Counted from the first letter of the stretch, positions 4,278-60,819 are shown. The stretch is DNA of 64,000 nt from Vicinamibacteria bacterium (GCA_963697705.1 CAVOPA010000003.1:832176-896175), one strand, 5' to 3'. Translations and numbers: made by a program. The notes: a model not told the origin generated them from the sequence alone.

Positions 4278-4547
4278 GAATGCGAAATGCACAATGCAAA
4301 ATGACACCAGCCAGATGCGGGCAGGCGTCGGCGCTCGCGTCAGCGGCGCGGCTTCCGGCGTTCAGCCGCTTGGCGTGAACCGCTGCGCTTAACGCCACGC
4401 CAGACGCAGCCCCTCAGCCAACCGAGCACGGTCCGTTCCCTCCGGCCGGCGCGCGAGTCCAGAGCCGTCGCCCGCCGCCAAGGCCTACCGCCAGCCGCCA
4501 GCCGCCAGCCGCCAGCCGCCAGCCGCCTGTGCATTGTGCATTACACG
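4278..4547. repeat. Word palindrome, ATGCACA-type arms around a ~220-nt core
   Basis: Left gaatgcgaaatgcacaatgcaaaatgaca (4278-4306). Right tgtgcattgtgcattacacg (4528-4547). tgcacaatgca and tgcattgtgca are exact reverse complements. The core ends in (CCGCCAG) x5.7 at 4488-4527. Confidence 0.7.
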
Positions 4548-4565: not shown

Positions 4566-7250
4566 ATGCTGTGCGCCCCTGCTGTGGTTCGCGCGTGCGC
4601 CTGCGCCGCGGCGATCGGGTCCCTGTGTGTGCTGGCGCGCGGGCAATCGGTGCCTCCGTCTGGAGACGTTCTGGACGGGTCTGCGACTCGAACCTGGGAG
4701 CGCCTCCTGAAGCTGCGCACCACAGCGAGCCTCCTGCACACCACCGCGCACCCGGACGATGAGCAGGGCGCGATGCTGGCACGGGTGAGCCGCCGCGACG
4801 GGGCGCGCACGGCGCTACTGACCCTCAATCGTGGCGAGGCCGGCGACAACGCACTCGGGCCCGAGCTGTTCGACGGCCTCGGGCTGATCCGGACAGCCGA
4901 GCTCGTGGCTGCCGGACGGTATTACGGGGTCGACGAGCAGTACTTCACGGCCGTTGCCGACTACGGCTTCTCGAAGCGGCTGGACGAAGCGCTGGAGCAC
5001 TGGGATCGCGCCGACGTGCTTCGCGACATGGTTCGCGTCATCCGCCGCACGCGTCCGCTCGTCGTCGTGTCGCGCTGGCAGGGCAACGAGCGCGATGGAC
5101 ACGGGCAGCACCAGGCAGCGGGCGCGCTCACGCCAGACGCGGTGCGACTGGCGGGCGACCCGTCAGCGTACCCGGAGCTGCAAAACGAAGGTCTCCGGCC
5201 ATGGGCGGTTCGGAAGCTGTTCGTCGGCGGCGTGCGCGAGGCGGAACCGTGGAACGTGCGCCTCGACACCAACGCGTACGATCCGGCGCTTGGCGCGTCG
5301 TACAGCCTGCTCGGACGCCTTGGCCTGAGCATGCAGCGGTCGCAGACGAGCGGGCGTTTCGATCCGTATGCCGCTGGCCAACCGCTCTTCTATCGGCGCG
5401 TGCGGCCCGACGTGGCGCCCGAGCACGAAGACGGATTTTTCCAGGGCCTCGACATCAGCCTGCCAGGTCTGTACGCGCTGCTCGGCGTGCCAGCGCCTGC
5501 CGGGCACGTGGCCGCGCTCGAAGCCATCGCTCGGGAGGTCGAGGCGGCACCCGCGGCCTTCGCGATCACCGATCCGTCCGCGTGCGTTCCGCCGCTCGCG
5601 CGCGGCCTGGCCGCCGTCCGCCACCTTCGCGATGCCACGGCGGATCCGGACGCCCGGTTCATCCTCGAGATCAAGGCACGCCAACTGGAAGAGGCACTCG
5701 TCTCCGCTGCCGGTCTGGAGCTCGTGGCGATGGCGGAGCCGCCACGTTCGGCGGGCGATGCACCGAGCCCGTTTGCGCAGCCACCGACGCTCGGGCCCGT
5801 AACGCCAGGGCAAACGGTGAGTGTTCGCGTCGTCGCCACGAACCGCGGACTCGGGGAACTCTCGGTATTACGGCTGGCGGTCACGCATCCCGGCGGGACG
5901 CTGATGACCGACGTACCGGCCGATGTCGCAGCGCTTCATCCGATGGAGCCGCGCGTGCACATGTTCGCCGTCACCATTCCCACGGATGCGCCGCCTACGC
6001 GCCCGTACTTCACGCGTGCATCCCCTGAGGACACGCGTTACGAGCTGCGCGACGCGTCCATGGCGGGACGCGCGGAGGCGCCGCCTCCGTTCACCGCATC
6101 TGCCGACGTGCGGATCAGTGGCGTGCCGCTGACGCTGAGGGTGCCCGTCATGCGGCGTGAGGCGGACCTGCCGTTCGGATACGAGCTCTATCCGCTCGAG
6201 ATCCTGCCGGCGGTCAGCGTCTCACTGCTCCCGCGGTCCGGGATCCTGGTGCGCGGTTCGGGGGGCGCGATCAGTATCGAGGCGCGCGTCACCAATCACG
6301 CGGCGCAGCCAACCGCGGGTACCGTCGCGCTCACGTTGCCCACCGGCTGGACGTCGTCTCCCGAGCGTGAGCCATTCTCGCTTGCAGCGGCTGGCGCAAG
6401 CCACTCGACGGTGTTCACGGTGCGGGTGCCTTCGCTTGCCGCAGAGGCACAGGCCGTCTCCGCGGCTGTCACGGTCGGCGGCCGCGTCTACACGAGTGAC
6501 ATAGAGGCGATCCGGCATCGCGACCTGCCGGTTCAGTACGTGTATCGCGAAGCCCGCACGGTCGTGCGGGGTGTGGATGTGTCGGTCGTACCCGGATTGA
6601 ACGTCGGCTACGTCATGGGCGTGGGCGATGAGGTGCCAGCGGCGATCACACAGCTCGGCGCGACGGTTCACCTGCTGAGCGACGTGGAGCTGGCATCGGG
6701 CGATCTGGCGCGCTTCGATACGATCATCACAGGCACCCGGGCCTACGCCGTGCGTGCCGATCTCCACGCCCACAACGACCGGCTGCTGGCCTTTGTGAAG
6801 GCCGGGGGCAACCTCGTCGTGCTGTACAACACGCCCGAGTTCACGCCGGCAACGCTGGCGCCCTTCCCGGCATCGCTGCCGGACGATGCGGAGGAAGTGT
6901 GCGAGGAAGGAGCTGCCGTCGAGATCCTGACCCAAGCAGACCCGTTGCTGCTGCGGCCGAACCGGATTGGACCCTCTGATTTTGCCGGCTGGATCGAGCA
7001 GCGCGGCTCGAAGTTCTTTGCCACCTGGGACGCGCAGTACACGCCTCTGCTCTCAACCCACGATCGCGGCCAACCGCCGCAACGAGGCGGCATGCTGCAC
7101 GCGCGGTACGGGAAAGGGCACTACACGTACATGGCGTACGCGCTCCACCGGCAACTGCCGGCCGGTGTGCCCGGGGCTTACCGGCTGCTCGCTAATCTAA
7201 TCTCTTTGGGACGGAGCGACGACCCCGGTGCTTCCGGGCGGCGGCCGTGA
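4566..7250 (+). CDS. PIG-L/LmbE-family deacetylase, long form with C-terminal GATase1/ThuA-like module
   Basis: LmbE signature LHTTAHPDDEQGAMLARVS...LTLNRGEAGDN. C-terminal FDTIITGTRAY...AGGNLVVLYNTPEF. Signal-like N-terminus. Confidence 0.85.
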   Translation: MLCAPAVVRACACAAAIGSLCVLARGQSVPPSGDVLDGSATRTWERLLKLRTTASLLHTTAHPDDEQGAMLARVSRRDGARTALLTLNRGEAGDNALGPELFDGLGLIRTAELVAAGRYYGVDEQYFTAVADYGFSKRLDEALEHWDRADVLRDMVRVIRRTRPLVVVSRWQGNERDGHGQHQAAGALTPDAVRLAGDPSAYPELQNEGLRPWAVRKLFVGGVREAEPWNVRLDTNAYDPALGASYSLLGRLGLSMQRSQTSGRFDPYAAGQPLFYRRVRPDVAPEHEDGFFQGLDISLPGLYALLGVPAPAGHVAALEAIAREVEAAPAAFAITDPSACVPPLARGLAAVRHLRDATADPDARFILEIKARQLEEALVSAAGLELVAMAEPPRSAGDAPSPFAQPPTLGPVTPGQTVSVRVVATNRGLGELSVLRLAVTHPGGTLMTDVPADVAALHPMEPRVHMFAVTIPTDAPPTRPYFTRASPEDTRYELRDASMAGRAEAPPPFTASADVRISGVPLTLRVPVMRREADLPFGYELYPLEILPAVSVSLLPRSGILVRGSGGAISIEARVTNHAAQPTAGTVALTLPTGWTSSPEREPFSLAAAGASHSTVFTVRVPSLAAEAQAVSAAVTVGGRVYTSDIEAIRHRDLPVQYVYREARTVVRGVDVSVVPGLNVGYVMGVGDEVPAAITQLGATVHLLSDVELASGDLARFDTIITGTRAYAVRADLHAHNDRLLAFVKAGGNLVVLYNTPEFTPATLAPFPASLPDDAEEVCEEGAAVEILTQADPLLLRPNRIGPSDFAGWIEQRGSKFFATWDAQYTPLLSTHDRGQPPQRGGMLHARYGKGHYTYMAYALHRQLPAGVPGAYRLLANLISLGRSDDPGASGRRP

Positions 7251-7253
7251 CAG

Positions 7254-7400
7254 CCGGAATGCACGATGCACAATGCACAATGACAGACGCGGGCACCGTC
7301 CTCGACATGAACACCGCGTGTGGCCGTGTCGAGCATGGTCGTTAGCTTCAGTCGCATCCAGTCTGCCGGCCGTTGTGCATTGTGCCTTGTGCATTACTCG
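7254..7400. repeat. Word palindrome, ATGCACA-type, between convergent genes
   Basis: Left ccggaatgcacgatgcacaatgcacaatgacag (7254-7286). Right ccggccgttgtgcattgtgccttgtgcattactcg (7366-7400). Loop contains a nested hairpin ctcgaca (7301-7307) / tgtcgag (7327-7333). Confidence 0.8.
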
Positions 7401-7412
7401 AGCAAGGCCGTG

Positions 7413-8213
7413 TTACCGCTTTCGCCGAACCGTCTTCGCGGGCGGGGGCGGCGGGGCGGGCTTGTATTCCACCACCACCTGGCTGATCACCGCGACGGGC
7501 CGGCCAGGGGCGGTGTAGAGGGCGTCGCCATCCAGGCGCGACGTGGCGAGCTTCTCACCGAGGATGCTCACGCGGTCGATGTCGGCCGGAATGTCGATCA
7601 CGATCGACTCGACGCCCGTCGGCGCGACGGCCTTCACGCCCGCCGTCCCGCTCGCCCCGGGCGCCGAACTCGCGACGATACGGTCGAAGAGATCGGCTTC
7701 CTTCCGGAACTCACTCTGAATCACTGCCCGCGACAGCAGCGTGTTCTCCATGGTCAGGACGCCGACCGTGGCGGTGTAGCGCGTGTACGCGCGACCGGCC
7801 TTCTCCTGTTCGGCCGAGTAGGTGTGCCGGTTGTGCAGGTCGAAATAGATCGTCGCCGGCCCGGTGTGCTTCGGGAGTCGCACGATGATGCCGCCGCTCG
7901 GCTCGCGGCCGGAGAGCACATCGCAGAACGTGCGCCCGGTTCGCACACCAGTGCCGAGGGTCGCGTTGCACGAGATATCGGCTGGCTCGGTACGAAGGAC
8001 CTCGTGCGGCTTCGGCTTCGGTGGCAGCTTGCGGGTCTGGGCGAGCGCCGGTGACGCGCAGAGCACGATGGCGAGGCACACACACGCGGGCCGCGTGATG
8101 ACCCGATACGCGTCGGCAACAGGGCGGCGTGGCGCGGCGCACGATCCGGCGCCGAAAGCACGCTCGCGGTGCCGCCGATCGGCCGTGGCGGGGCCGGCGC
8201 GGGGGGGCTTCAC
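7413..8213 (-). CDS. Secreted hypothetical protein
   Basis: Coding-looking region after the signal [18 protein letters not shown]. Pro-rich basic tail [15 protein letters not shown]. The only in-frame start between the signal and folE is a GTG at 8213, which overlaps the folE stop as GTGA. The track ORF to 8603 overlaps folE and is rejected. Confidence 0.55.
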
Positions 8214-8812
8214 TCCGAGACGCACGTGAGGCTGGAGGCGATCGCGTCCGCGGCCGAGGGCACCGACTGCCGATGCCTGATCAGCTCGAGGAACTCGTTG
8301 CGGGTCCGGGCATTGTCGCGGAACGCGCCCAGCATCGCGCTCGTGACCGCAAACGAGTTCTGCTTCTCGACGCCGCGCATCGACATGCAGAGGTGCGTGC
8401 CTTCCATCACGACCGCGACGCCGAGCGGGTCGATCTTGTCGCGAATGACTTCGGCGATCTGGTGCGTCAGCCGCTCCTGCACCTGGAGGCGCCGCGCGAA
8501 CACGTCGACGAGGCGCGGAATCTTGCTGAGCCCGATGACACGCTTCTGCGGAATGTACGCGATGTGACATTTGCCGAAGAACGGCAGGAGGTGGTGCTCG
8601 CACAAGCTGTAGAAGTCTATGTCCTTGACGATCACCATCTCGCTGTAATCGACGGTGAACAGCGCGTTGTTGATGACCGCGTCCACGTCGGCACGGTATC
8701 CGCTTGTGAGGAACTGGAGCGCCTTCTCCACGCGCCGGGGCGTCGCCAGCAGCCCCTCCCGGCCAGGGTCCTCCCCCAGCTCCTCTAGCAGCTGGGTAAT
8801 CAGCTCTTGCAT
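8210..8812 (-). CDS. folE: GTP cyclohydrolase I
   Basis: Full-length match to type I FolE: [71 protein letters not shown]. Confidence 0.95.
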
Positions 8813-8899
8813 CCCGTTATTGTACACAGCAAGCGAGGCGGCTCAGCGGGACGCTCGCCACCCTCGAACCCGCCGCATCGTCGCACTGTGCTTTGTGCC

Positions 8900-9766
8900 T
8901 TACGCATAGTCATAGAACCCCTTCCCCACCTTCTTGCCCACCCGCCCTGCCAGCACCATTCGCTTGAGCAGCGGCGGCGGCGCGTAAGCGGGCTCCCGGA
9001 ACTCCTCGAACATGATGTTCGCGATGTAGTAGGTGGTGTCGAGACCGACGAAATCCAGCAGCGTGAACGGGCCCATCGGGTAGCCGCACCCGAGCTTCAT
9101 GCCCTTGTCGATGTCGTCGAGGGTGCCGAGCCCGTTCTCGTAGGCGCGGATCGCGTCGAGCAGGTACGGCACGAGCAGTCGATTGACGATGAAGCCGGGC
9201 CGGTCGGGGGCGGTGATGGGTTCCTTCCCAAGCGACTGTGCGAACGCGAAAAGCGCCTCGTAGGTCGGCTCTGTCGTGCTCAAGCCGCGGACCACTTCGA
9301 CGAGCTTCATCAGGGGCACGGGATTGAAGAAGTGCAACCCGCCGAACCGGTCGGGGCGCGTCGTGGCGGCCGCAAGCTCGGTGATGCACAGAGACGAAGT
9401 GTTCGACACGATCAGCGTCCCGGCCCCGACGACTGCTTCGACGGCGGCGTAGGCCTGTCGCTTCGCATCCAGGTTTTCTACGATCGCCTCGATCACGAGA
9501 TCGCAGCCCGCGAGCGCGTCGAAGCTGGTAGCGCCAGACAGGTTCGCGAGCGTCGCATCGCGAGCCTCCTCCGTCACCTTCCCCTTCTGGACCCCCTCGT
9601 CGAGGAACTTGCGGACGCGGCCGAGACCCTTATCGAGTACGCCCTGGTCGACCTCACGCACAACGGTCCGGTAGCCGCTCTGTGCGCACACCTGCGCGAT
9701 GCCGGCCCCCATCAGGCCGCAGCCGAGAACTCCGACGGATTGATGGACATGGACGCTGTACCTCAC
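8900..9766 (-). CDS. 3-hydroxybutyryl-CoA / 3-hydroxyacyl-CoA dehydrogenase
   Basis: NAD fold VGVLGCGLMGAGIAQV, HFFNPVPLMKLVEVV, PGFIVNRLLVPYL, GYPMGPFTLLDFVGLD. Start set at the GTG (VRYSVHVHQS...). The track TTG at 9790 lies inside a repeat arm. Confidence 0.9.
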   Translation of the reverse strand: MRYSVHVHQSVGVLGCGLMGAGIAQVCAQSGYRTVVREVDQGVLDKGLGRVRKFLDEGVQKGKVTEEARDATLANLSGATSFDALAGCDLVIEAIVENLDAKRQAYAAVEAVVGAGTLIVSNTSSLCITELAAATTRPDRFGGLHFFNPVPLMKLVEVVRGLSTTEPTYEALFAFAQSLGKEPITAPDRPGFIVNRLLVPYLLDAIRAYENGLGTLDDIDKGMKLGCGYPMGPFTLLDFVGLDTTYYIANIMFEEFREPAYAPPPLLKRMVLAGRVGKKVGKGFYDYA

Positions 9767-9767
9767 G

Positions 9768-9900
9768 AAAGGCCAAAGGCTAAGGGCCAAAGGCTTAGGG
9801 CCAACCGCTGAAGGCCCAAGCGCGAGTCGGCTCGTGACCGCGAGCTCGCCAAGGGGCCTTTAGCCATTGGCCCTTAGCCATCAGTCCTTAGCCCTGAACC
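9768..9900. repeat. Word palindrome, GGCTAAGGGCCAA-type, filling the thiolase-hbd spacer
   Basis: Left aaaggccaaaggctaagggccaaaggcttagggcc. Right ggcctttagccattggcccttagccatcagtccttagccc. The right arm contains the thiolase stop codon and the left arm abuts the hbd GTG. Confidence 0.8.
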
Positions 9901-11063
9901 AGCGCCGCGATCCCCTGCCCGCCGCCGATACACGCCGCCGCCACGCCGCGATGTGCGCCGCGCCGTCGCATTTCGAGGGCGAGCGTGAGCAGCAGGCGCG
10001 TGCCACTCATGCCGAGCGGATGACCGAGGGCGATGGCGCCGCCGTTGACGTTCACCGCCTCGCGAGGCAGACCCAGCTCCTGTTCGACCGCGAGGTACTG
10101 CGCGGCAAAGGCCTCGTTGATCTCGAACAAATCGATGTCGCCGAGCGTCAGCCCCGTGCGCTCGAGCAGCATCCGTGTAGCCGGTGCCGGCCCCATTCCC
10201 ATCAGCGTCGGCTCCACCCCCGTCGTCGCCCAACCCGCGAGCCTGCCGAGCGGCGTGACGCCGAGACGCTCCACCGCCGCGCCCGAAGCCAGGATCAACG
10301 CCGCGCCGCCATCGACGATGCCGCTGGCGTTGCCGGCGGTCACACACCCGTTCTTCGAGAAGGCCGCAGGCAGCTTCGCCAAGACTTCGAGCGTTGTCTG
10401 CGGCCGCATGTGATCGTCGCGAGTGAAAGCTTCGACACCCTTGCGCGATTTCACCTCCACGGCAACGACTTCGTCCGAGAATCGCCCCGCGTCCCAGGCG
10501 GCCGCCGCGCGCTGCTGGCTGAGTAGCGCGTACTCGTCCTGGGCGTTCCGCGAGATGCCGTATTTACCGGCACAATTCTCGGCCGTCACCGCCATGCTGC
10601 AGCCGCAATGCGTGTCGGTGAGGGCCTCCCAGAGCGAATCTTCGAGGGTGCCCTGTCCAAGGCGCAGACCGCCGCGCAGCCCGCGGATCACGTGGGGCGC
10701 CTGGCTCATGCTCTCGGCGCCACCGGTCAGCACGACGTCAGCTTCGCCCAGCAGGATCATCTGCGCACCGCTGATCGCGGCCTGAATGCCAGACCCGCAG
10801 AGGCGATTCACGGTGAGCGCAGGCACGTCCACCGGCACGCCGGCTTTGAGCCCGATATGGCGCGCACCGTAGATCGCATCCGCGCTCGTTTGCAGCACAT
10901 TACCGAACACGACGTGGGCGATCTGATCCGGGCGAACGCCCGTCCGTGTGAACGCCGCCCGGGCCGCGATGGCGCCGAGGTCGAGCGCGGAGATGTCCTT
11001 CAACGCGCCGACATACTCCGCCATCGGCGTGCGGGCGCCGCCCACTATGAAGACTTCAGTCAT
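9888..11063 (-). CDS. Acetyl-CoA C-acetyltransferase (thiolase II)
   Basis: NRLCGSGIQA (active Cys), NEAFAAQ, GHPLGMSGTRLL, ACIGGGQGIA. Confidence 0.93.
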   Translation of the reverse strand: MTEVFIVGGARTPMAEYVGALKDISALDLGAIAARAAFTRTGVRPDQIAHVVFGNVLQTSADAIYGARHIGLKAGVPVDVPALTVNRLCGSGIQAAISGAQMILLGEADVVLTGGAESMSQAPHVIRGLRGGLRLGQGTLEDSLWEALTDTHCGCSMAVTAENCAGKYGISRNAQDEYALLSQQRAAAAWDAGRFSDEVVAVEVKSRKGVEAFTRDDHMRPQTTLEVLAKLPAAFSKNGCVTAGNASGIVDGGAALILASGAAVERLGVTPLGRLAGWATTGVEPTLMGMGPAPATRMLLERTGLTLGDIDLFEINEAFAAQYLAVEQELGLPREAVNVNGGAIALGHPLGMSGTRLLLTLALEMRRRGAHRGVAAACIGGGQGIAALVQG

Positions 11064-11064
11064 T

Positions 11065-11241
11065 CCCGTGATCCGTTATCCGTGATCCGTTGGTTCGTCG
11101 ATCCGCTGTTCGTCGTCCGTTCCGTCGTTCCGTCATCCGCTGACCGCGCATTCGCCGCCGTGGGAGAGGCCGACTTGTGAATCGCTCCGGCGATCAGCGT
11201 CAACGCGGCGGATACCGGATAACGGATAACGTGTCAACGGG
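11065..11241. repeat. Word palindrome, ATCCGTT-type, filling the IPMDH-thiolase spacer
   Basis: Left cccgtgatccgttatccgtgatccgttggttcgtcgatccgctgttcgtcgtccgttccgtcgttccgtcatccg. Right ggcggataccggataacggataacgtgtcaacggg. cgttatccg pairs with cggataacg. Confidence 0.75.
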
Positions 11242-11264
11242 AAGTGATTGCGTCGACAATCGCC

Positions 11265-12287
11265 TCACCCACCGCAATCGTCCCCCTGCGTACCGCCGAT
11301 ATCAGGCGTGCCGATGCCGTCGTTGACCACGTGGCGGACGGCCCGGTCGATCGCAGCCGCTTCGTCAGTCAGACCGAGATGCGCGAGCATCAGGCCGGCG
11401 GACAGGATCGCACCCATCGGGTTCGCCACGTTCCGGCCCGCCAGCGGCGGCGCCGAACCGTGCACCGGCTCGAACATCGAGGTGCGGCCAGGGTGCACGT
11501 TCGCCGACGCGGCCATTCCGAGGCCTCCCTGTAGGGCGGCGCCAAGGTCGGTGATGATGTCGCCGAACAGGTTATTGGTCACGATGACGTCGAACTGCGC
11601 CGGCTCGCGCACCATCTGCAGCACCAGGGCGTCGATGTACTGGTGTGACGCATGGATGTCCGGAAATTCCGGTGCCACGGCGCGGAAGATGCGCTGCCAC
11701 AGGGCATGCCCGTCGGCCATGGCGTTGCTCTTGTCGGTCATGCACACGCGCGTGCGGCCGTGCACGCGTGCCCATTCGAACGCATACCGCACGATGCGGT
11801 TGACGCCCTTCCACGTATTGACCTCTTCCTGGATTGCGATCTCGTCCTCGGTGCCAGGCTTCACGCGACCGCCGACGCCAACATACACACCCTCGGTGTT
11901 CTCACGGAAGATCGCCATGTCGATGTCGGCCGGTGTGCGGTCCTTCAGCGGACAGAGCCGCGCGTCGAAGAGCGTGACGGGCCGGTAGTTCACGTACAAA
12001 TCGAGCTCGAAACGAATCCCGAGCAGGATGTCGCGCGCGTGCCGGCTGTCGGGCACCCGCGGATCGCCGAGCGCCCCGACGAGCACCGCGTCGAAGTCGT
12101 CCCTGAGCATCACGTACCCATTCGCGGGCACGGTGACGCCGGTCTCGAGGTAGTAGTCGGCGCCCCAAGGGATTTGTTCGATCTCGAACGTGCGCCCGAA
12201 GACATCGCCGACACGCCGGATCGCGCGGAGGGCTTCGGCTACGACCTCTTTGCCTATGCCGTCGCCGGGGATGACCGCCAGCCGCAT
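11265..12287 (-). CDS. Isocitrate/isopropylmalate dehydrogenase family enzyme (3-IPM or tartrate dehydrogenase-like)
   Basis: MRLAVIPGDGIGKEV, YVNYRPV, FRENTEGVY, NLFGDIITDLGAALQGGLG, EPVHGSAP. The C-terminus looks frameshifted (see findings); a corrected frame would end near 11234. Confidence 0.85.
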   Translation of the reverse strand: MRLAVIPGDGIGKEVVAEALRAIRRVGDVFGRTFEIEQIPWGADYYLETGVTVPANGYVMLRDDFDAVLVGALGDPRVPDSRHARDILLGIRFELDLYVNYRPVTLFDARLCPLKDRTPADIDMAIFRENTEGVYVGVGGRVKPGTEDEIAIQEEVNTWKGVNRIVRYAFEWARVHGRTRVCMTDKSNAMADGHALWQRIFRAVAPEFPDIHASHQYIDALVLQMVREPAQFDVIVTNNLFGDIITDLGAALQGGLGMAASANVHPGRTSMFEPVHGSAPPLAGRNVANPMGAILSAGLMLAHLGLTDEAAAIDRAVRHVVNDGIGTPDIGGTQGDDCGG

Positions 12288-12326
12288 GTCATGCAGGATG
12301 TCGGATGACGGATGCCGAATGCAAGG
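12285..12326. repeat. Low-coordinate arm of the GGATGNCG-word palindrome enclosing the four-helix-bundle ORF
   Basis: catgtcatgcaggatgtcggatgacggatgccgaatgcaagg. Includes the IPMDH start codon (12285-12287). Confidence 0.8.
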
Positions 12327-12415
12327 CTCGTCGATTCTGTCCGCCGGCGCCGAGCACAGAAGCATGTCGGATGGCGGGGGCCGGCCCCCGCGCCTAGATA
12401 TTCGACGATCCCGAT

Positions 12416-12788
12416 TCAGCCGCGACCTGGGTTGGAGCGCGCGTTGCGCAGAATCACAGTTAGTACCTGACACCAAGCCGTTAGCCTCGCGCAGCAATGG
12501 CGTAGCTGCCTCGACGAGCGCCGGCCGCTTGTTGCTGATCACGCGGAGCCAAAAATACGACTCGCGCGCCTCCTTCAAAGCGATAGCGCCCTTTGCGATG
12601 AAATCTGCCTTGCTCTGTCCAGCAGAGGCCTCCTCGAGGTTCGAGCCTATGCTCGTAGCGGCCTTGAACAATTGCCAGATCAAATGCCGGGTGGTGGCTC
12701 GCAGGTCCCGAACGGAATCGCAGAAATCGATCACGTCGCAGGCGAAGTTGAACGCACGATCATGAATATCTCGCGGCTTCTGCGTCAC
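12416..12788 (-). CDS. Four-helix-bundle protein (23S rRNA intervening-sequence protein family, TIGR02436/PF05635-like), apparent frameshift near the 3' end
   Basis: FNFACDVIDFC...QLFKAATSIGSNLEEASAGQSKADFIAKGAIALKEARESYFWLRVI. After ...LLREANGLV the family-typical tail (QVLTVILRNARSNPGRG-stop at about 12416) is in the neighbouring frame. As sequenced, the ORF reads through into the IPMDH gene, giving the 507-aa track ORF. Confidence 0.75.
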
Positions 12789-12860
12789 AGCGGCACGCGC
12801 ATGCGAAGGCCATGCCTGAGGTCAGCAATCGTCAAATCGTCCCTGCCGACCTGCAGTGCT

Positions 12861-13012
12861 ATGCGCCATCCGCCATCCGCATCCGCCATCCTGCATCCGC
12901 CATCCTGGCATCCGGCATCCGTCGCATTCGGCATCCGGCATTCGACATCCGGCATTCGACATTCATCGACATCCGACATCCGACATCCGGCATCCGGCAT
13001 CAGGCATCCGAG
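12861..13012. repeat. High-coordinate arm (CATCCG/CATTCG words, ~150 nt) of the same palindrome
   Basis: ...gcattcggcatccggcattcgacatccggcattcgacattcatcgacatccgacatccgacatccggcatccggcatcaggcatccgag. Ends 3 nt from the thiolase stop at 13015. Confidence 0.8.
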
Positions 13013-13014
13013 AA

Positions 13015-14226
13015 TCAGCCGTTCGTGTCGCACCTTTCAATGGCGAGCGCCATCCCCATCCCCCCGCTCACGCACAACGTGGCCAGGCCCCGGCGGGCCT
13101 GGCGGCGGTGCAGTTCGTGGAGCAGCGTGACGAGGATCCGTGTGCCGGTGCAGCCGATCGGATGTCCGAGCGCAATGGCGCCGCCGTTGACGTTCAGGCG
13201 CTCACGATCGATCGGGAGGTCGGCGAGCACGGCGAGCACCTGCGGGGCGAAGGCTTCGTTCAGCTCCACCAGATCGAAGTCGTCGAGCGTGAGCTGGAGG
13301 CGATCGAGCAGCTTGCGGACTGCGGGGACCGGCCCGATGCCCATGCGGGCCGGATCGACGCCGACGGTGGCCCAGCCAAGGATCCGCGCGAGGGGACGCA
13401 GGCCGTGCTTGCGTATGGCGGCCGCACTGGCCACGAGCACGGCGGCACCGCCGTCAGTGATGCCGGACGAGGAACCTGCCGTGATGATGCCGGGCAAGCC
13501 CGCCACCTGCGGAAACACCGGCGGCAGTTTCTTCAGCGCCTCGATCGTCGTCCCTGCCCTCGGATGCTCGTCGGCGGCGATCGTCGTGCCGCTTTTCGGC
13601 CCGGGCACGTGGACGGCCGTGATCTCGGCAGCGAAACGGCCCTCGCGCGTTGCGGCGTCGGCCCGATGCTGACTGAGGAGCGCGTAGTCGTCGGATGCCT
13701 CCCGCGTGATGCCATAGTCGCGCGCGAGCAGCTCCGCCGTCTCACCCATGATCAGCCCTGAAAGGGGGCACTGGAAACCGTCGCGATACATTGCGTCGAC
13801 GAGTGCGAAGTGCCCCATCTTGTGCCCCCACCGCGCATCGTCAGCGTCAAGCAGGTAGGGCATGCGGCTCATCGATTCGATGCCGCCCGCGAGCACGACG
13901 TCGGCGTCGCCCGCTGCGATCGCCTGCGCGGCCGAGGCGACGGCCTGCAGGCCCGACGCGCACGCCTGGTTCAGCGTCCACGCGGGCACGCGATCGGCAA
14001 GGCCGACATGGCGACCGACCTGCCGCGCGGGGTTCGGGCCAGACCCCGCCTGACGCGCGTGCCCGATGACGACGAGATCGATCAGCCCGGGATCGATCGC
14101 AGCGCGCTCAATCGCTGCGCGCGCGGCGATGGCGCCGAGCTCCGCAGGATGCACGCTCTTCAAGCCTCCGCCATAGCGCCCGATCGGCGTGCGCGCTCCA
14201 GCGACGATGAACGTCTCCGTCATCAC
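13015..14226 (-). CDS. Acetyl-CoA acetyltransferase / thiolase (second paralog)
   Basis: NQACASGLQA, NEAFAPQ, GHPIGCTGTRIL, LCVSGGMGMA. Confidence 0.93.
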   Translation of the reverse strand: MMTETFIVAGARTPIGRYGGGLKSVHPAELGAIAARAAIERAAIDPGLIDLVVIGHARQAGSGPNPARQVGRHVGLADRVPAWTLNQACASGLQAVASAAQAIAAGDADVVLAGGIESMSRMPYLLDADDARWGHKMGHFALVDAMYRDGFQCPLSGLIMGETAELLARDYGITREASDDYALLSQHRADAATREGRFAAEITAVHVPGPKSGTTIAADEHPRAGTTIEALKKLPPVFPQVAGLPGIITAGSSSGITDGGAAVLVASAAAIRKHGLRPLARILGWATVGVDPARMGIGPVPAVRKLLDRLQLTLDDFDLVELNEAFAPQVLAVLADLPIDRERLNVNGGAIALGHPIGCTGTRILVTLLHELHRRQARRGLATLCVSGGMGMALAIERCDTNG

Positions 14227-14311
14227 TGAACGATCTTATCCGGTGTCACAGACACCCGACGATGGGTCGTCGGCGATGACGGGTTCGGTCAGCACCCGGC
14301 GGCCCGCCGAC

Positions 14312-15748
14312 CTACGGTCCCGCACGCCGATACACCCGCATCCGCTCACCGTCGCCCGGCCGGTCCGAGAACCGCACCAGGCGCTCACCGAATGGGCGCA
14401 GCGGCAGGTGCGGATTGTCGCCGAGCCATTCGTTCGTCAGGAGGACTCCCTCAGGCGCAAGCATCGCCGCGATGTTTGCCGTGGCAAGCGCCTGCTCGAA
14501 GATGTCGTAGTAGATCAGCACGTTGGTGGCGACCACCACGTCGAAGCGCTCGCCCGGCGGGAGATCCAGGCGCTGGTAGACGATGTCGAGGTCGAGCGCA
14601 GTCAAGAGACGAGGGACGTCGGCGGAGAGCCGGACGGCTCGGCGTTCGAGCGTGCCGGCGTTGTTGGGGGGCGCCAGGGGATGAGCCGCGGCGCCGACCC
14701 GTGTGCCCACAGCCTGCCACCAGGCGCGCGCCTCCGGCGTCCACGGCACGGCCGGATCGAGCGTGAGCTGCAGGTCGTACGGTCTGGCTTTCGGAGAATC
14801 GACGAGCCGACGCAGGTGCTGATTGACGCGAGGGCTGACGTCGAAGGTCGTGAGGCGAAGGTCTCGTGAGGCGACGCCGAGGGTCGCGAGCGAATCGATC
14901 ACGGCGAACGGCTGGAAGGTCTGCGGCGGGTAGTAATCCTGTCCCTCGGCCTTGTCGATGAAGTCGAGGCCAGGACCAATCACCGCGATGCGCCGCACGC
15001 CGCTCGCAGGCAGGATACTCCTGGCTTGCAGATCCGCGAGGGCGCCGTGGACTGCAAATGCGATCGGCCACGATGTGTCGGACGCCAGCGCGCGCGACGC
15101 AAAGAGGTGCGCCCGCCGCGCGATGTCCGCGCGTTCCCCGCCCGACTCCCCTGCCGCGAGCGCGGCGCCGAGTTCCCGGCTCTCGCGCGTGACCCGCGCG
15201 AAGTTTGCGAGCAGGTAGGCGCGCGCGCGAGTCGCGCCGGCCGGCGTTTCCACGGGCAGGCCGAGGCGATCGAACGTCGCGCGCACCCACGCCAGCCGTT
15301 CGTCACCCGCCGGAGTTCCGGCCGCAGTGACCAGGTCGGAGACGCGCGCGTGGATCGCGCCGCCAACCACGCGCTCGACTCCCGCCGTTCCCGTTCCGTC
15401 GGCCGCCGCGCGCGCAGTCGCATCGGCAATGAACGCGACCGTGATCCGTGGCGCCGTGGTGAAGCTCGTGCCGTAGACGAGCAGATACGCGAGCGCGTCT
15501 TCTTCGGCGCGGAGGACGCGGCCGCGAACGGCGGCGTCGCGCGCCCTCACCCAAGCGGTCCACCGCGCCGCGCCCTCCGTGTCGGACGGCAGGTCTGCTG
15601 GCGCGTGCTCGGCCACCGCGGGGAGCACGGAGGCGATCTCGCCGCGGAACACGAAGCGGACGCGAGATCCGTCGGCGGCGGCGAGCCCGAGCGCGAGAGC
15701 GCCGAGGGGGAGCCACACGAGAAACGGGGTGCGGCGGAACGGAGGCAC
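14312..15748 (-). CDS. Hypothetical exported/membrane-anchored protein with a methyltransferase-like C-terminal region
   Basis: GTG start before FLVWLPLGALALGLAAA. C-terminal RIAVIGPGLDFID...FDVVVATNVLIYYDIFEQALATANIAAMLAPEGVLLTNE resembles a class I MTase fold. The track start at 15868 lies in REP-like repeats. Confidence 0.55.
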   Translation of the reverse strand: MPPFRRTPFLVWLPLGALALGLAAADGSRVRFVFRGEIASVLPAVAEHAPADLPSDTEGAARWTAWVRARDAAVRGRVLRAEEDALAYLLVYGTSFTTAPRITVAFIADATARAAADGTGTAGVERVVGGAIHARVSDLVTAAGTPAGDERLAWVRATFDRLGLPVETPAGATRARAYLLANFARVTRESRELGAALAAGESGGERADIARRAHLFASRALASDTSWPIAFAVHGALADLQARSILPASGVRRIAVIGPGLDFIDKAEGQDYYPPQTFQPFAVIDSLATLGVASRDLRLTTFDVSPRVNQHLRRLVDSPKARPYDLQLTLDPAVPWTPEARAWWQAVGTRVGAAAHPLAPPNNAGTLERRAVRLSADVPRLLTALDLDIVYQRLDLPPGERFDVVVATNVLIYYDIFEQALATANIAAMLAPEGVLLTNEWLGDNPHLPLRPFGERLVRFSDRPGDGERMRVYRRAGP

Positions 15749-26200: not shown

Positions 26201-26343
26201 TCTACAACGGAACCATCGGTGACGTGACCCGCTTCGTGAGCGCTCCGGGCGGAGCATCGCCGAGCTACAACCCGATCTACAACCAGCCCCTTGCCTACCA
26301 GGAAGGGCGCCGGGCCACTCTCTCGCTCCGCTTCCAGTTCTAA
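23254..26343 (+). CDS. CarboxypepD_reg / TonB-dependent receptor-like outer-membrane protein (intact, 1029 aa)
   Basis: RBS GAGGAGG. Signal MFRRAIAVLVCALAFATPALAQE. GSLEGTIKDAQGAVLPGAVVEA...TDANGMYRFPALPPGTYQVTA. FVVDGVDVSN. Terminal strand RATLSLRFQF. Confidence 0.9.
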   Translation: MFRRAIAVLVCALAFATPALAQEQRGSLEGTIKDAQGAVLPGAVVEARSAALIGVRTETTDANGMYRFPALPPGTYQVTAALSGFQSAKSQIVQLSVGEVLRVDVTLALGGVTEAVQVTAESTVLDVASARTATTLSAKVIEGLPRGRTFNTLLQLAPGVRAETKSGTAGVGGYQFDGTSGSENVFVVDGVDVSNIRNSSLGVQDAIPFEFVQELQIKSGGFEAEYGGALGGVVNVISKSGTDTFRGEALYQFSGDVLNATPRAASPVAGQTATFVGTGYRRDPFNVTQSEFFEPSEDQYTQQTYGFTLGGPIAKDKLRFFVGYMPERYQTDRSIDFVNSQGVVTPKDSSSTVLRHRGTGRLDYSPFQKLQLNASYFWNPQKTTGLLTTNDPKVAPPTTDLAKQGGYVPSNATTFGANYLPSSKLLFSARYGYKYVNDKGNSYGKDQVPYLVYNTSSNNGGLTGVPAQYTGAAGYTNVASTLTTQQDLLTRHNVYLDATYFGNVLGQNHTIKGGYALNRVGDDVLTNYTQGRFNINWGEGYTRGSIVDVRGPYGYYTWQDGVRLNSKVTSRNQGLYIQDAWQIHPRITVNLGLRIEDEFLPPFRAEQEVDGQLVKIANPISFGWGDKIAPRIGGAWDVLGNGRWKIASSWVRVNDVLKYELARGSFGGDYWHDHVYTLDNPDLNQLSLSTPGALGQKIQEIDNRTVPINAQGQIEGVDPDIKPMSNNNFDVSTEYLLRPQTTLTVRYTHKHLRYGIEDIGVLDADENEVYTIGNPGFGATPDSIRTATGASLTPRAQRDYDALEFRVTGRMTHFFYNASYTYSKLFGNWSGLANSDEAGRSDPNVSRAFDLSPGNFDENGHNVYGRLATDRPHSLKLFGNYALESKLGTTMLGVSQLAYSGTPLSSEVTFIVPVLYNGRGDLGSTPTFTQTDLLASHAIRFGANKRAVFEFNVTNLFDQDIVTNVTTRYNRNGSVPSTFANDLYNGTIGDVTRFVSAPGGASPSYNPIYNQPLAYQEGRRATLSLRFQF

Positions 26344-26364
26344 CCGGATTGGGGCAGTAGACGC

Positions 26365-26398
26365 GCCCCGCCACTCCGAAAGGGGTGGCGGGGCTTTT
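26365..26398 (+). terminator. Intrinsic terminator of the intact receptor gene
   Basis: GCCCCGCCAC-tccgaaagg-GTGGCGGGGC followed by TTTTC, 22 nt after the stop at 26343. Confidence 0.8.
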
Positions 26399-26410
26399 CA
26401 CGTACCGGAA

Positions 26411-26515
26411 GGGCTAAAGGCTAAGGGCCAAGGGCTTAGGGACGGCCGGGGTTAAGGCCCAGAACTCGACTAGCCCTCAGCGGTGCCCTTAGCCCTCAGC
26501 CTTTAGCCCTCAGCC
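26411..26515. repeat. Word palindrome, GGCTAAGGGCC-type, between convergent genes
   Basis: Left gggctaaaggctaagggccaagggcttaggg (26411-26441). Right cccttagccctcagcctttagccctcagcc (26486-26515), ending 1 nt from the M14 stop codon. Confidence 0.8.
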
Positions 26516-26516
26516 T

Positions 26517-29336
26517 TCAGTAGAGCGCGTTGAAGAGCAGCTTGAAGGTAGCGTGGGGCTGGGCGCGGAACTGGGGCGGGAAGGCGAAGAGGACGACACG
26601 GCCGGCGCCATATGGTGCGTCGAGCAGCGCGTGGCGGGTGGCGATGCGATCGGCGCCGAGCAGCCAGCCGCTCATGAGCACGACGTCGGCGGGCGCGTAC
26701 TGCGCAATGCTCTGCACCGTCGGATCGGCAGTGTCGAAGGCGCGCGAGGCCTCGAAATAGGCGGCGCTCTCACGCGCCATCCCCCAGGCCACCGGCTGGT
26801 TGATGTCGACGGTGATCCGCACCACAGACCCCGGGCAGTAGAACACCGAGCGATCCAACCCGCGCGTCACGTCGCGAATGCGATCGAACACGCCGCCGAA
26901 GCGTTCGAGCGGGAGGTCGCTGGCCGCATCGAGGGTCACGAGTGTGCCGCCATCGTGCACGAAGCGCTTCAGCGCCTCCACCCCGGACTCGCCGATCCCG
27001 CCCTGGTACTCCGGTGGCACGGGGTTGGAGGGCCCATCGTGCCGGGATGACGCGGAGGGCTCGTGGCCGCGAACGATCGCCGCCGGTGACTGGCGCGGCA
27101 GGATGATGACGTCGAACGACCTGCGGAGATCGCCGGCGCGGACATCGCGGTCGACCAGCGTCGCGTATGGGAATCCGTACTGCTCCAGCAGCCACCGCGT
27201 CCAGCCTTCGTCGATATTGGCGACCCAGCTCTTATACAGGCCGATGCGGCGTGCGGCGATGGGCTGCGTGGGGTCCGCAGGCGCGCGATCGATTGACCAC
27301 GCGCGGAGACCGAGATCCTCCACCAGGCGGCGGACCAGCGCTGCGAGCCCCGGTCCGCGGTTTCGCGCCCCGGCGGGCTGCGATCGGCTGAATGCCATGT
27401 CGCTATCGCCGGACGCCCGGCTCGACTCGGGCGCGACAAGAGCCTTTCCTCCGCGGCCGGCCACCTTGATGACCCACGCTCCCGCTGGCAAGGTGACGCC
27501 CGGGCGGGGACTGAAGGGAGCGCGGAGGCGGCTGACGGCTGCGCCGTGCGCCAGCAGCCGGTTGACGGCGAGTGCGCTCACGTTCGCACGGTCATCAATC
27601 ACATACCCCCACGGGCCGGAGCCGGGTGCGATGGTGATGGCGCCCGCCGCGCGCGGTGCCGTCTCGAGGCGCACGAGGGCCGTCGTGTCGAATGGCGTGG
27701 CGACAGGAACGGCGGTGACGCCCATCTGATACGCGAGCGTCCAGCCGGCCGTGTCGTAGGGCGGGATTGGCGGTCCACCCGGGTGCGCGCGCAGATCCGG
27801 GTACACCTGGCGCTCGAGCAGGTCCTTGGCAAAAGGCCGGAACGGCTGCGCGAGCAGCACGGCGTGCGTACCGGCGGGATACGTGACCCCGTCCGCGGCG
27901 AGCGGCGCCGTCGCACGATGCACCTCGATTCCGCCCTTCATCAGCGTGTCGATGAACGCCATGCTCGCCGGCACGTCGTGCTGCGGGGCAGGAATGATGT
28001 AGGCCACAGGCGCTTCGGTCCGGCCCTTGGCGATCTGCCGCGCGCCGACCTGGTAGATGCCGTAGAGGAGCTGCTCGCGCCACTTCGCCGCAAGGTCGAG
28101 GACGCCCAACGAGCCCGTGAGCATGTAATCGACGGCGTCGGCGAGGTGCAGCGTGCCGCCCTTCCAGGGATTCGGATACGTCACGCTCGGCACGAGCGTG
28201 GACACGCCGTTCGAGAGCGTCCGCGGGAAATCGGCGGGGTCGTACGTGTACGGCGTGGCCGAGGCGTGGCCGGTCTCCGTCAGGATGCCGATGATGTTGT
28301 GGAAATAGCTCGTCGTGCGGACCGAACCGTTGTACCAGATCGAGAACGAGTATCGCGAGATGACGCCGTCCTTTCCCTCGCGCTCGAACCGGTCCTGCAT
28401 CGCGCCGCCGACCAGATCCACGCCGCGCACGATCTGCGGATCGATGTTGGGGTTCACCGGGTCGGGAAACGGCGGCACGAAGATGCGCGGCGGGTACGTG
28501 CCCTGATGCTGGTTGTACATGATTTGCGGCAGCCACTCCGCGAACAGCAGGTGACTGACGACCTGCGTTTCCTTCTGCGTCTGCATGTAGCCGTCGCGGT
28601 TGTTGTCGTGCCCGACATACTTCTGATAGAGCCACGGCATCGGACTGTCCTGGTGCGGCGTGTGGAGCGTGCGCCGGTACCAGTCGACCACCATGTTCAT
28701 GCCGTCCGGGTTGATGCACGGCGCGAGAACGAGGATCACGTTGTCGCGGATCGCCTGCATCTCGGCGCTGTCGTCGGTGGCCACACGGTAGGCGAGCCGG
28801 ATCGCGTGCTGCGCGGTCGCGACCTCGCTCGCGTGGAGGCCGCTGTCGATCCAGACGACTGCCTTGCCCTCCCGCGCGAGCGCGCGCGCCTCGCGGTCGC
28901 TCAAGCCGCCGACGAGCGCGAGCCGCCGCGAGATGTCACGGTAGTGCCCAAGCCGGGCGAGGTTCGCTTCCGACGAGATGATCGCGACGAGCATCTCGTT
29001 GCCTTCAGTGGATTGTCCCGCGATCTCGAGCTGCACCCGGTCGGAGGCCGCATCGAGCCGCTGGAAATACGCGCGCAGCTGCCGGAAGTCCGCGAGCGTG
29101 TAGTCGTCGCCGGGCTCGAACCCGAGGACGTCGCGCGGCGAAGGCACCCCGGTGGGCGCCTGCGGCGCGGCGCGCAGCTGTCCGGCAGGCTGCGGGAGCA
29201 GCAGGAGCGCGCACACTCCGAGGAGCTGCAGGAGATGTCCTGCGCACGTCCGGGTCGGCACGGGAGCTAGAGTGCCCGACGCTGCGAGGCTGCGCAACCC
29301 GACGCTGTCCCGTCGGCCAATGGCAGCTTTATCCAT
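26517..29336 (-). CDS. M14-family zinc carboxypeptidase-like protein, long form with C-terminal GATase1-like module
   Basis: GLHASEVATAQHAIRLAY, CINPDGMNMVVDWY, KYVGHDNNRDGYM. C-terminal IGLYKSWVANIDEGWTRWLLEQYGFPY...FDVIILP. Confidence 0.85.
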   Translation of the reverse strand: MDKAAIGRRDSVGLRSLAASGTLAPVPTRTCAGHLLQLLGVCALLLLPQPAGQLRAAPQAPTGVPSPRDVLGFEPGDDYTLADFRQLRAYFQRLDAASDRVQLEIAGQSTEGNEMLVAIISSEANLARLGHYRDISRRLALVGGLSDREARALAREGKAVVWIDSGLHASEVATAQHAIRLAYRVATDDSAEMQAIRDNVILVLAPCINPDGMNMVVDWYRRTLHTPHQDSPMPWLYQKYVGHDNNRDGYMQTQKETQVVSHLLFAEWLPQIMYNQHQGTYPPRIFVPPFPDPVNPNIDPQIVRGVDLVGGAMQDRFEREGKDGVISRYSFSIWYNGSVRTTSYFHNIIGILTETGHASATPYTYDPADFPRTLSNGVSTLVPSVTYPNPWKGGTLHLADAVDYMLTGSLGVLDLAAKWREQLLYGIYQVGARQIAKGRTEAPVAYIIPAPQHDVPASMAFIDTLMKGGIEVHRATAPLAADGVTYPAGTHAVLLAQPFRPFAKDLLERQVYPDLRAHPGGPPIPPYDTAGWTLAYQMGVTAVPVATPFDTTALVRLETAPRAAGAITIAPGSGPWGYVIDDRANVSALAVNRLLAHGAAVSRLRAPFSPRPGVTLPAGAWVIKVAGRGGKALVAPESSRASGDSDMAFSRSQPAGARNRGPGLAALVRRLVEDLGLRAWSIDRAPADPTQPIAARRIGLYKSWVANIDEGWTRWLLEQYGFPYATLVDRDVRAGDLRRSFDVIILPRQSPAAIVRGHEPSASSRHDGPSNPVPPEYQGGIGESGVEALKRFVHDGGTLVTLDAASDLPLERFGGVFDRIRDVTRGLDRSVFYCPGSVVRITVDINQPVAWGMARESAAYFEASRAFDTADPTVQSIAQYAPADVVLMSGWLLGADRIATRHALLDAPYGAGRVVLFAFPPQFRAQPHATFKLLFNALY

Positions 29337-39996: not shown

Positions 39997-40075
39997 TGCA
40001 AAATGCACGATGCACGATGCGACGATGCGACGATGCGACGATGGACAGACTGACATGTCGGATGCGGGATGCCGG
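39995..40075 (+). repeat. Direct octamer/heptamer word tract between convergent genes
   Basis: aatgcaaaatgcacgatgcacgatgcgacgatgcgacgatgcgacgatggacagactgacatgtcggatgcgggatgccgg. Confidence 0.75.
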
Positions 40076-48326: not shown

Positions 48327-48397
48327 GTGCGCTGAATCCTGGTCAGAGTCTCGTGGCGGCGACGTTTCGGCTGCGCTCGATGCGCTCGCGGGATCGC

Positions 48398-48632
48398 GGC
48401 CCGCCTGAAGGCGGGCACTACGTGACGATCACGGCCCACCTTGAGGCGGGCACTACGGACATCACGGCCCGCCTGAAGGCGGGCACTACGCGACGATCAC
48501 GGCCCGCCTGAAGGCGGGCACTACGCGACGATCACGGCCCGCCTGAAGGCGGGCACTACGCGACGATCACGGCCCGCCTGAGGCGGGCACTACGACGATC
48601 CGGCCCGCCTGGCGGGCACTACCTGACGATCC
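48398..48632 (+). repeat. Tandem array of 7 REP-like hairpin units (31-35 nt) between deoA and nupC
   Basis: Units start at 48398, 48433, 48466, 48501, 48536, 48571 and 48602. Consensus GGCCCGCCTGAAGGCGGGCACTACGCGACGATCAC. Three central units are identical. The last unit overlaps the deoA stop at 48619. Confidence 0.9.
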
Positions 48633-60730: not shown

Positions 60731-60819
60731 AAATGTCGGATGCAGGATGGCGGATGCCGGATGCCAGAAAGTCCTTGGCGTCACATTCGACATCCAGCAT
60801 CCGACATCCCGCATCCTCT
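60731..60819. repeat. Word palindrome, GGATGNCG-type, between convergent genes
   Basis: Left aaatgtcggatgcaggatggcggatgccggatgccag. Loop aaagtccttggcgtcac. Right attcgacatccagcatccgacatcccgcatcctct, abutting the rng stop at 60818. Confidence 0.8.

Follow-up and report, generated by a model that had tools for sequence, protein, structure and literature searches.

The spacers between the genes of a co-directional string in a Vicinamibacteria bacterium (GCA_963697705.1, CAVOPA010000003.1:832176-896175; the whole stretch of 64,000 nucleotides is called the window below) probably hold selfish or neutral palindromes with arms of heptamer repeats, and not control structures built for the operon, a reading to which we assign a probability of about 0.6. 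These palindromes belong to a class that recurs across phyla, and one of them is of the intervening sequence (IVS) type and carries a gene for a four-helix-bundle (4HB) protein as cargo. The reading builds on the observed anatomy, class membership, distribution, turnover and inversion of the elements and on their association with 4HB genes. The operon does without these elements in many relatives, and the arrays change much faster than the flanking genes. The initial annotation had described a six-gene minus-strand string in which every spacer is filled by a different hairpin. The gene order was confirmed with Pfam and NCBIfam, and the genes, open reading frames (ORFs) and spacer features are listed here from the first gene of the string:

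13015-14226, minus strand: thiolase-2 (acetyl-CoA C-acyltransferase), first gene in the string
12867-13010: long 4HB-element arm made of some 20 heptamers in tandem (plus strand CATCCGG, operon sense CGGATGC)
12416-12788, minus strand: 4HB ORF (PF05635 / TIGR02436, '23S rRNA intervening sequence protein'), start at 12788, frameshifted
12291-12322: short arm of the 4HB element, GGATGTC GGATGAC GGATGCC on the plus strand, 3 nt from the IPMDH ATG
11265-12287, minus strand: isopropylmalate/tartrate dehydrogenase-like gene (IPMDH-like), ATG at 12285-12287
11066-11236: ORF-less heptamer hairpin in the IPMDH/thiolase-1 spacer, arms 11066-11134 and 11209-11236
9888-11063, minus strand: thiolase-1 (BktB-like)
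9768-9893: ORF-less heptamer hairpin in the thiolase-1/hbd spacer, GGCTAAG/GGGCCAA words, 1 nt from the hbd GTG
8900-9766, minus strand: hbd (3-hydroxybutyryl-CoA dehydrogenase), GTG at 9764-9766
8883-8899: remnant half-array of GCACAAA/GCACAGT type just past the hbd stop, not significant as a hairpin
8819-8824, minus strand: TACAAT box of a predicted promoter, separated from the folE ATG by exactly 6 nt
8210-8812, minus strand: folE (GTP cyclohydrolase I)

Tandem Repeats Finder (TRF) resolves every arm into tandem 7-nt words, a feature that the initial annotation had not noted; within an element, both arms are built from one word, inverted in one arm relative to the other. The long arm of the 4HB element (period 7, 19.9 copies of CATCCGG) begins 4 nt past the thiolase-2 stop codon and pairs with 12291-12335, where 2.7 copies of GGATGAC at 12296-12314 form the inverted counterpart. 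Segments 12291-12322 and 12924-12955 make up an inverted repeat with 32-nt arms that are 91% complementary and lie 601 nt apart, with the 4HB ORF between them. The GGATG tracts initially annotated at 12285-12326 and 12861-13012 are indeed present, but they are the two arms of a single element and not two spacer structures. In the IPMDH/thiolase-1 spacer, CCGTGAT/CCGTTAT words plus degenerate units at 11066-11134 face CGGATAA words at 11209-11236 across a core of unique sequence, with 87% complementarity between 11067-11089 and 11209-11231. The thiolase-1/hbd hairpin has AAAGGCC/GGCTAAG on one side and GGCCCTTAGCC on the other, and its inverted repeat (9778-9826 and 9845-9893) spans 49 nt at 76% complementarity. 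The final Gly codon and TAA stop of thiolase-1 (9888-9893) coincide with the first GGCTAAG unit of this hairpin, and the array may have been seeded by the end of the thiolase-1 gene itself. Arrays in the operon spacers begin 0-4 nt after stop codons. As had been pointed out, the start codons of IPMDH, thiolase-1 and hbd adjoin an arm (1-3 nt away), with no GGAG motif there.

We folded the RNA of the operon strand and compared it with dinucleotide shuffles. The thiolase-1/hbd spacer (9767-9887) folded at -65.4 kcal/mol with a z-score of -4.3, the IPMDH/thiolase-1 spacer (11064-11264) reached z = -2.8, and the whole 4HB element (12288-13014) z = -2.2, with long-range arm pairing in the minimum-free-energy structure. 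Three of the four initially proposed spacer structures were thus recovered (9768-9893, 11066-11236 and 12291-12322 with 12867-13010), whereas the hbd/folE tract was rejected as a hairpin on energy (z = -0.8 for 8813-8899). The spacers flanking the string (14227-14311 and 8142-8209) contain no such hairpin. A known RNA family was also rejected, as the Rfam 15 covariance models gave only two sub-threshold chance hits and no rRNA match over 7000-14500 at permissive E-values. The same holds for an intrinsic terminator: no T-run follows the stems, and a scan of 8100-14400 located neither sigma-70 promoters nor T-run terminators at the spacers.

The turnover of the elements became apparent from the same junctions in 80 related loci, which place the window in Vicinamibacteria/Vicinamibacterales, Acidobacteriota. 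The order thiolase-2, IPMDH, thiolase-1, hbd is kept in about 45 of these loci, with junctions that vary from gene overlaps up to spacers above 300 nt. Junctions of at most 30 nt occur between thiolase-1 and hbd in 22 of 45 loci, between thiolase-2 and IPMDH in 16 of 44, and between IPMDH and thiolase-1 in 4 of 49. Long junctions carry other words with a period of 7, 8 or 9 (CACGAAG+n, GAATCTG, GGAAGCC, CACAGAG), often as hairpins; among 75 spacers of 60-450 nt, a tandem array with units of 7-9 nt was present in 35 and a perfect inverted repeat of 12 nt in 15 (control, 0). The nearest genomes are L001 and L002, with 83-94% protein identity; between IPMDH and thiolase-1 they have CTGGAGC and not CGGATAA. 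They keep the GGCTAAG family between thiolase-1 and hbd in longer arrays (spacer of 166-208 nt), and their thiolase-2/IPMDH junction holds a 4HB gene with AATGCAC arms. At the hbd/folE junction, L001 possesses a full ATGCACG array where the window has the half-array. In many relatives, aaggag or aagga stands between the hairpin and the start codon at the IPMDH/thiolase-1 junction, which indicates that contact of the arm with the start codon is not a conserved feature. A different repeat type fills the thiolase-1/hbd spacer of locus L039 (8344-8700); it consists of about eight repeats in tandem, each about 45 nt long and containing gatagacgtagcgcgaaggcttcagccgagcgcacac.

The 4HB ORF of the window matches PF05635 (Pfam, 1.4e-11) and TIGR02436 (5.4e-16). 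A PDB search with the protein returned 2RLD as the only homologue, plus a weak hit to 2GSC. The reading frame of the ORF is shifted by an additional G at about 12466-12467, and as a consequence the ORF seems to continue into IPMDH, for a total of 507 aa (11265-12788); such ORFs running through elements are artefacts. An intact 123-aa copy (P0001), 98% identical, is found at the same junction in L081/L082, and the nearest homologues in a search of 5.8 billion proteins all lie in this thiolase-2/IPMDH junction. The copy in L002 carries two frameshifts, so that, together with the window copy, the cargo appears to be decaying. When aligned with the window, L081 is collinear, whereas in L083, L084, L085, L001 and L002 the 4HB interior runs opposite to the flanks. 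This observation indicates that the interior was inverted between the arms, as expected from recombination between inverted repeats. The alignment of window 11685-14240 with L081 2083-4630 is a mosaic of identities that switches at the long heptamer arm: 91.7% in thiolase-2, 89% with indels in the long arm, 97.8% in the 4HB gene and 99.3% in the remainder and IPMDH. The long arm may mark a recombination breakpoint.

We counted tandem arrays in 977 kb, comprising the window and 89 loci. Period 7 was the commonest, with 147 arrays, as compared with 47, 51 and 49 for periods 6, 8 and 9. By a coding call approximated from G+C content at third codon positions, coding-like ORFs cover about 80% of the DNA, yet 121 of the 147 period-7 arrays fall outside them. 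A reverse-complement partner (at least 13 of 14 matching within 800 nt) was detected for 47 of the 147, and reverse-only or complement-only controls gave 0-1; the partner rates for periods 8, 9 and 6 were 20/51, 14/49 and 2/47, respectively. The pairing showed no preference for the transcribed strand. Across 32 hairpin-bearing operon spacers whose direction of transcription is known, the sense RNA was more stable in 18 and the antisense RNA in 14 (Wilcoxon p = 0.72), and for the two hairpins of the window in this set the antisense strand folds slightly better. The complementarity therefore looks strand-symmetric and points to a process at the DNA level. Selection on sense-strand RNA structure, sought as G-U asymmetry, was dropped as a candidate, since no bias was found.

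The association with 4HB genes extends to other phyla. We drew a systematic sample of 80 metagenomic 4HB loci, of which 73 were usable, and looked in 260-nt flanks for matches with at least 13 of 14 positions complementary. Matching inverted flanks were present at 56 of the 73 loci (77%), as opposed to 3/73 in the complement-only control and 4/129 (3%) in positional controls 1.5-2.3 kb away. Where both arms gave a strict tandem signal, the period was 7 at every one of the 28 loci. The arm word was shared in all three pairs with at least 70% 4HB identity and in about 10% of pairs below that. The arms thus travel with the gene but change quickly.

Individual loci illustrate the range of contexts. 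In all Bacteroides-type copies, repeated CAATTGA lies upstream and repeated TCAATTG downstream, and the neighbouring genes are araD and araA, an aminotransferase and DAHP synthase, or, in an Anaerolineae metagenome-assembled genome (MAG), hsdS and hsdR; the protein between araD and araA is 99% identical to the crystallised B. thetaiotaomicron protein. In Xanthomonas, a 4HB gene between accB and accC has GGGAATC-type arrays on both sides, and the downstream arm touches the accC ATG. Four further 4HB homologues are bracketed by inverted heptamer arrays with a word specific to each locus (two acidobacterial-type contigs, one 'Deltaproteobacteria' MAG and one Planctomycetes contig with the order pdxA, 4HB, rsmA). 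The element fills the gap from stop to start codon at L177/L178 (1425-1872), L090/L096 (about 1435-1940), L089 (1961-2421) and L094 (1486-1905), loci that include Xanthomonas accB-accC, Bacteroides araD-araA, Planctomycetes pdxA-rsmA and Anaerolineae hsdS-hsdR. At L097-L176, when both arms are written in the sense of the 4HB gene, the one upstream is nearly always purine-rich (GAATGGA, AAGGCAG, AAAGTAA, GAATTGA) and the one downstream pyrimidine-rich, with few exceptions (L116, L156, L170).

Hairpins of the same kind lie elsewhere in the window, outside the gene string:

7258-7395: heptamer hairpin at convergent gene ends, AATGCAC / TTGTGCA arms, z = -4.7
26409-26520: heptamer hairpin between convergent genes, AAGGGCT / GCCCTCA arms (TRF), z = -3.3
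60733-60816: heptamer hairpin between convergent genes, CGGATGC family as in the 4HB element (TRF), z = -6.2
4279-4542: element between divergent genes, with a unique core of 184 nt flanked by an AATGCAA/AATGCAC array and an inverted TGTGCAT array

TRF reported 18 period-7 rows in the window, and single heptamer arrays also occur at several other gene ends. The CGGATGC family is found at 12291-13010 and 60733-60816 and the AATGCAC family at 4279, 7258 and 8883, and families intergrade, as in GGATGAC/GGATGTC versus GGATAAC/GGATCAC. The claim that each spacer has a different hairpin is only partly right: the hairpins are all of one kind, with a period of 7 and intergrading words. Two words also meet end to end where a perfect CCGCCAG array of 5.7 copies (4488-4527) adjoins the TGTGCAT arm of the element at 4279-4542. 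Along 39998-40043, the unit drifts from AATGCAA through AATGCAC and GATGCAC to three copies of the 8-nt GATGCGAC, and in the longer array to 40075 the GATGCGAC units are followed by GGATGCG/GGATGCC units. This drift suggests how one heptamer word family becomes another.

One of the closest known systems is the IVS of 23S rRNA. In Coxiella, the IVS is regarded as a selfish element with a decaying S23p (4HB) ORF in its loop; its 28-bp stem of terminal inverted repeats is cut by RNase III, and strains differ in how many GACAGAT heptamers stand in tandem next to the ORF (PMC4990558). The window element resembles the IVSs of Coxiella burnetii and Leptospira in its PF05635 ORF within a stem loop, its variable tandem heptamers and its decaying ORF, and those IVSs are likewise held to be selfish (PMC4990558). 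Unlike an rRNA IVS, which sits in helix 25 or 45, it lies between the protein genes of thiolase-2 and IPMDH, its arms are far longer (up to 20 units) and its interior occurs in both orientations; RNase III excision would apply to it by analogy.

Heptameric simple sequence repeats (SSRs) are another relevant class. They are over-represented in bacterial intergenic DNA, and Xanthomonas genomes have about 185 GGGAATC arrays, which form convergent inverted pairs in 70-75 cases, vary between species and are mostly transcribed (PMC4692102). Heptamer repeats (TAACTGA) were described in Beggiatoaceae and cyanobacteria, and also in Bacteroidetes (PMC4679880). Like these SSRs, the window arrays are built of tandem 7-nt units, lie between genes, including operon spacers, and vary among close relatives, and the likeness to Xanthomonas GGGAATC extends to the convergent inverted pairs that most arrays there form. 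In contrast to those systems, a single Acidobacteriota genome here holds several word families side by side. The cyanobacterial short tandemly repeated repetitive (STRR) sequences, reportedly described by Mazel and co-workers in 1990, are heptanucleotide repeats of the same description. The papers on heptanucleotide SSRs do not report a link to 4HB genes; here, one Xanthomonas GGGAATC pair encloses the 4HB gene between accB and accC. Our literature search combining 4HB-gene names with heptanucleotide terms returned nothing, and within the collection of papers searched the Coxiella IVS paper alone ties both (PMC4990558).

MITEs, or miniature inverted-repeat transposable elements, are likewise small, ORF-less and intergenic with inverted ends, but the window hairpins have no homologous-core family and no visible target-site duplication, and their ends are tandem arrays of variable length. 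Repetitive extragenic palindromes (REPs) are an established precedent for the stabilisation of mRNA segments in malE-malF-malG. Enterobacterial REPs conform to one conserved consensus of about 35 nt, and REP-associated tyrosine (RAYT) transposases mobilise them. As transcribed intercistronic palindromes able to protect upstream mRNA segments, REPs and the bacterial interspersed mosaic elements composed of them are a reasonable functional analogy, as initially drawn, but the window hairpins are not members of that family, because they share a period-7 architecture only, no sequence, and have unique cores. A MITE or REP family was rejected for the elements, as blastn of 11 element cores against the window and the 89 loci recovered orthologous copies (L081/L082) and a single 21-nt match only, and the arm words differ.

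Under the selfish or neutral reading, elements would sit or grow in any gene gap and fill it from stop codon to start codon. Arrays would gain, lose and mutate units, and recombination between arms would flip the interior. Arm complementarity could be kept by a strand-symmetric DNA process, presumably templated repair or template switching in quasi-palindromes together with slippage. Once transcribed, elements would fold into stems of 25-40 bp, which by analogy with IVSs should serve as RNase III substrates. The transcript from thiolase-2 through IPMDH and thiolase-1 to hbd would then be cut at each spacer, giving upstream pieces that end in a stem and downstream pieces that begin a few nucleotides before start codons. 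Such near-leaderless pieces could suit a genome with apparently wide leaderless initiation that does not use a Shine-Dalgarno (SD) motif.

The elements could instead be adaptive intercistronic regulators whose stems shield upstream mRNA from 3' exonucleases, gate start codons and set the output of each cistron. Stable stems in three spacers, arms that end 1-3 nt from three start codons without an SD motif, the persistence of the thiolase-1/hbd hairpin family in the window, L001 and L002, and the general precedent of REP stabilisation in malEFG would all suit this explanation. However, many syntenic relatives have short junctions or overlapping genes there, long junctions carry unrelated words, and the abutment of start codons is not conserved. 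The same elements lie between convergent genes and in one divergent region, sense RNA is no more stable than antisense RNA (p = 0.72), SD-less starts are general in the genome, one of the proposed hairpins lacks significance, and a separate promoter-like box precedes folE, an observation of a type that the initial annotation had itself named as refuting. We consider dedicated regulators unlikely. The initial annotation had proposed that these structures set translation initiation or mRNA stability for each cistron; an effect on processing, stability or initiation is plausible, but a dedicated structure for each cistron is not supported.

Terminators or attenuators devoid of a U-tract (I-shaped), as proposed for some high-G+C bacteria, which would act in both directions at convergent ends and partially inside the operon, are in our estimate very unlikely. 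It is true that three window copies lie exactly between convergent gene ends, directly after the stops, and that the operon arrays start within 4 nt of stop codons. Against this, no T-run lies behind any stem and the terminator scan was negative; at 26343-26400, a canonical terminator with a GC stem and TTTT precedes the heptamer hairpin, which is thus not needed there. One copy lies in a divergent promoter region, and 4HB copies reside inside essential operons such as accB-accC, where termination would harm. Plain replication slippage, with microsatellites arising independently on each side and the hairpin layout incidental, would account for the excess of SSRs with heptameric units in bacterial intergenic DNA (PMC4692102), for unit numbers that differ between close strains and for the 100 of 147 arrays without a detectable partner. 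Independent slippage would not yield the same word on both sides, though, and the reverse-complement partners of 47 of the 147 arrays (0-1 in controls) and the matching inverted arrays at 77% of 4HB genes (3% in positional controls) make this account highly improbable.

Several points weigh against regarding the spacer palindromes as selfish or neutral elements. The analysis revealed neither a transposase nor a target-site duplication nor a shared core, and we call the elements mobile because the same unit of arms and gene recurs in different gene contexts. A search with the 4HB hidden Markov model among six-frame ORFs of at least 20 aa matched the thiolase-2/IPMDH-junction copies only and gave no remnants in the ORF-less hairpins. 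Decay of former 4HB genes thus found no support as their origin, and their kinship with the 4HB element rests on architecture and word families. Growth of ORF-less hairpins in situ from seeds is indistinguishable from insertion. Weak selection could likewise explain why the three closest genomes keep a hairpin of one word family between thiolase-1 and hbd, and the 4HB frameshift of the window could be a sequencing error. The comparison sequences are mostly metagenome assemblies, in which repeat arrays are prone to mis-assembly, and RNase III processing of these stems is proposed by analogy only.

A broader hypothesis, which we advance tentatively and with some doubt, is that 4HB genes with inverted heptamer arrays form an unrecognised family of palindromic elements across phyla, with ORF-less kin and a role for the 4HB protein. 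Elements of such a family would settle between stop and start codons (thiolase-2-IPMDH, accB-accC, araD-araA, pdxA-rsmA, hsdS-hsdR) and in rRNA helices, and would be tolerated because host RNase III removes the stem-loop from the RNA. The ORF-less hairpins, the Xanthomonas GGGAATC pairs and possibly the cyanobacterial STRR sequences would be relatives lacking the cargo, and the pentameric 4HB protein might help to make or maintain the 7-nt arrays.

If the spacer palindromes are selfish or neutral, the long spacers and 'missing' ribosome-binding sites in Vicinamibacteria operons should be annotated as hypervariable heptamer palindromes and not as bespoke regulators. The 4HB family, annotated thousands of times as 'four helix bundle protein' or '23S rRNA IVS protein', lies between inverted 7-nt arrays at about three quarters of the sampled loci, and model organisms are among them (B. 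thetaiotaomicron araD-araA and Xanthomonas accB-accC). Excision at the RNA level may allow an element to live inside essential operons. The association would, if true, provide a handle on two long-standing questions, namely where bacterial heptanucleotide repeats come from and what they do, and what rRNA intervening sequences are and S23p/IVS proteins do.

The missing SD motifs had been taken as special to the genes of the string, with GGAGG sites elsewhere in the window for comparison. Clear GGAGG-type sites were confirmed at 23254, 29630 and 60226, but they are a minority type: an SD-like motif (GGAG/GAGG/AGGA, 4-11 nt before a candidate start) precedes only 12 of the 34 large window genes, with a chance rate of 5.6% per candidate codon, and SD usage appears low in this genome. 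With respect to promoters, a promoter-like box was found at folE, and no sigma-70 match fell within the spacers. Throughout Vicinamibacterales, in about 50 of the loci L001-L078 (48 nt upstream compared), TAnAAT (TACAAT, TAGAAT or TAAAAT) stands at the same distance of exactly 6 nt from the folE ATG. This conserved -10 box predicts a promoter of its own and a leaderless mRNA for folE, which is probably a separate transcription unit, so that the string would not be one six-gene unit. No such box precedes IPMDH or thiolase-1, and the nearest thing to one at hbd is a weak TAGCCT some 10 nt upstream of the GTG. A -10-like TAAGAT at 14233-14238 lies 6 nt before the thiolase-2 GTG, in the same geometry as at folE, and leaderless transcripts may be common in this genome.

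A further repeat in the window is of a separate, REP-array-like type, unlike the heptamer hairpins. It occupies 48392-48631, in a gap between a minus-strand and a plus-strand gene, and consists of about seven copies of a 35-nt unit at 90% identity, each with the hairpin GCCCGCCTGAAGGCGGGC.

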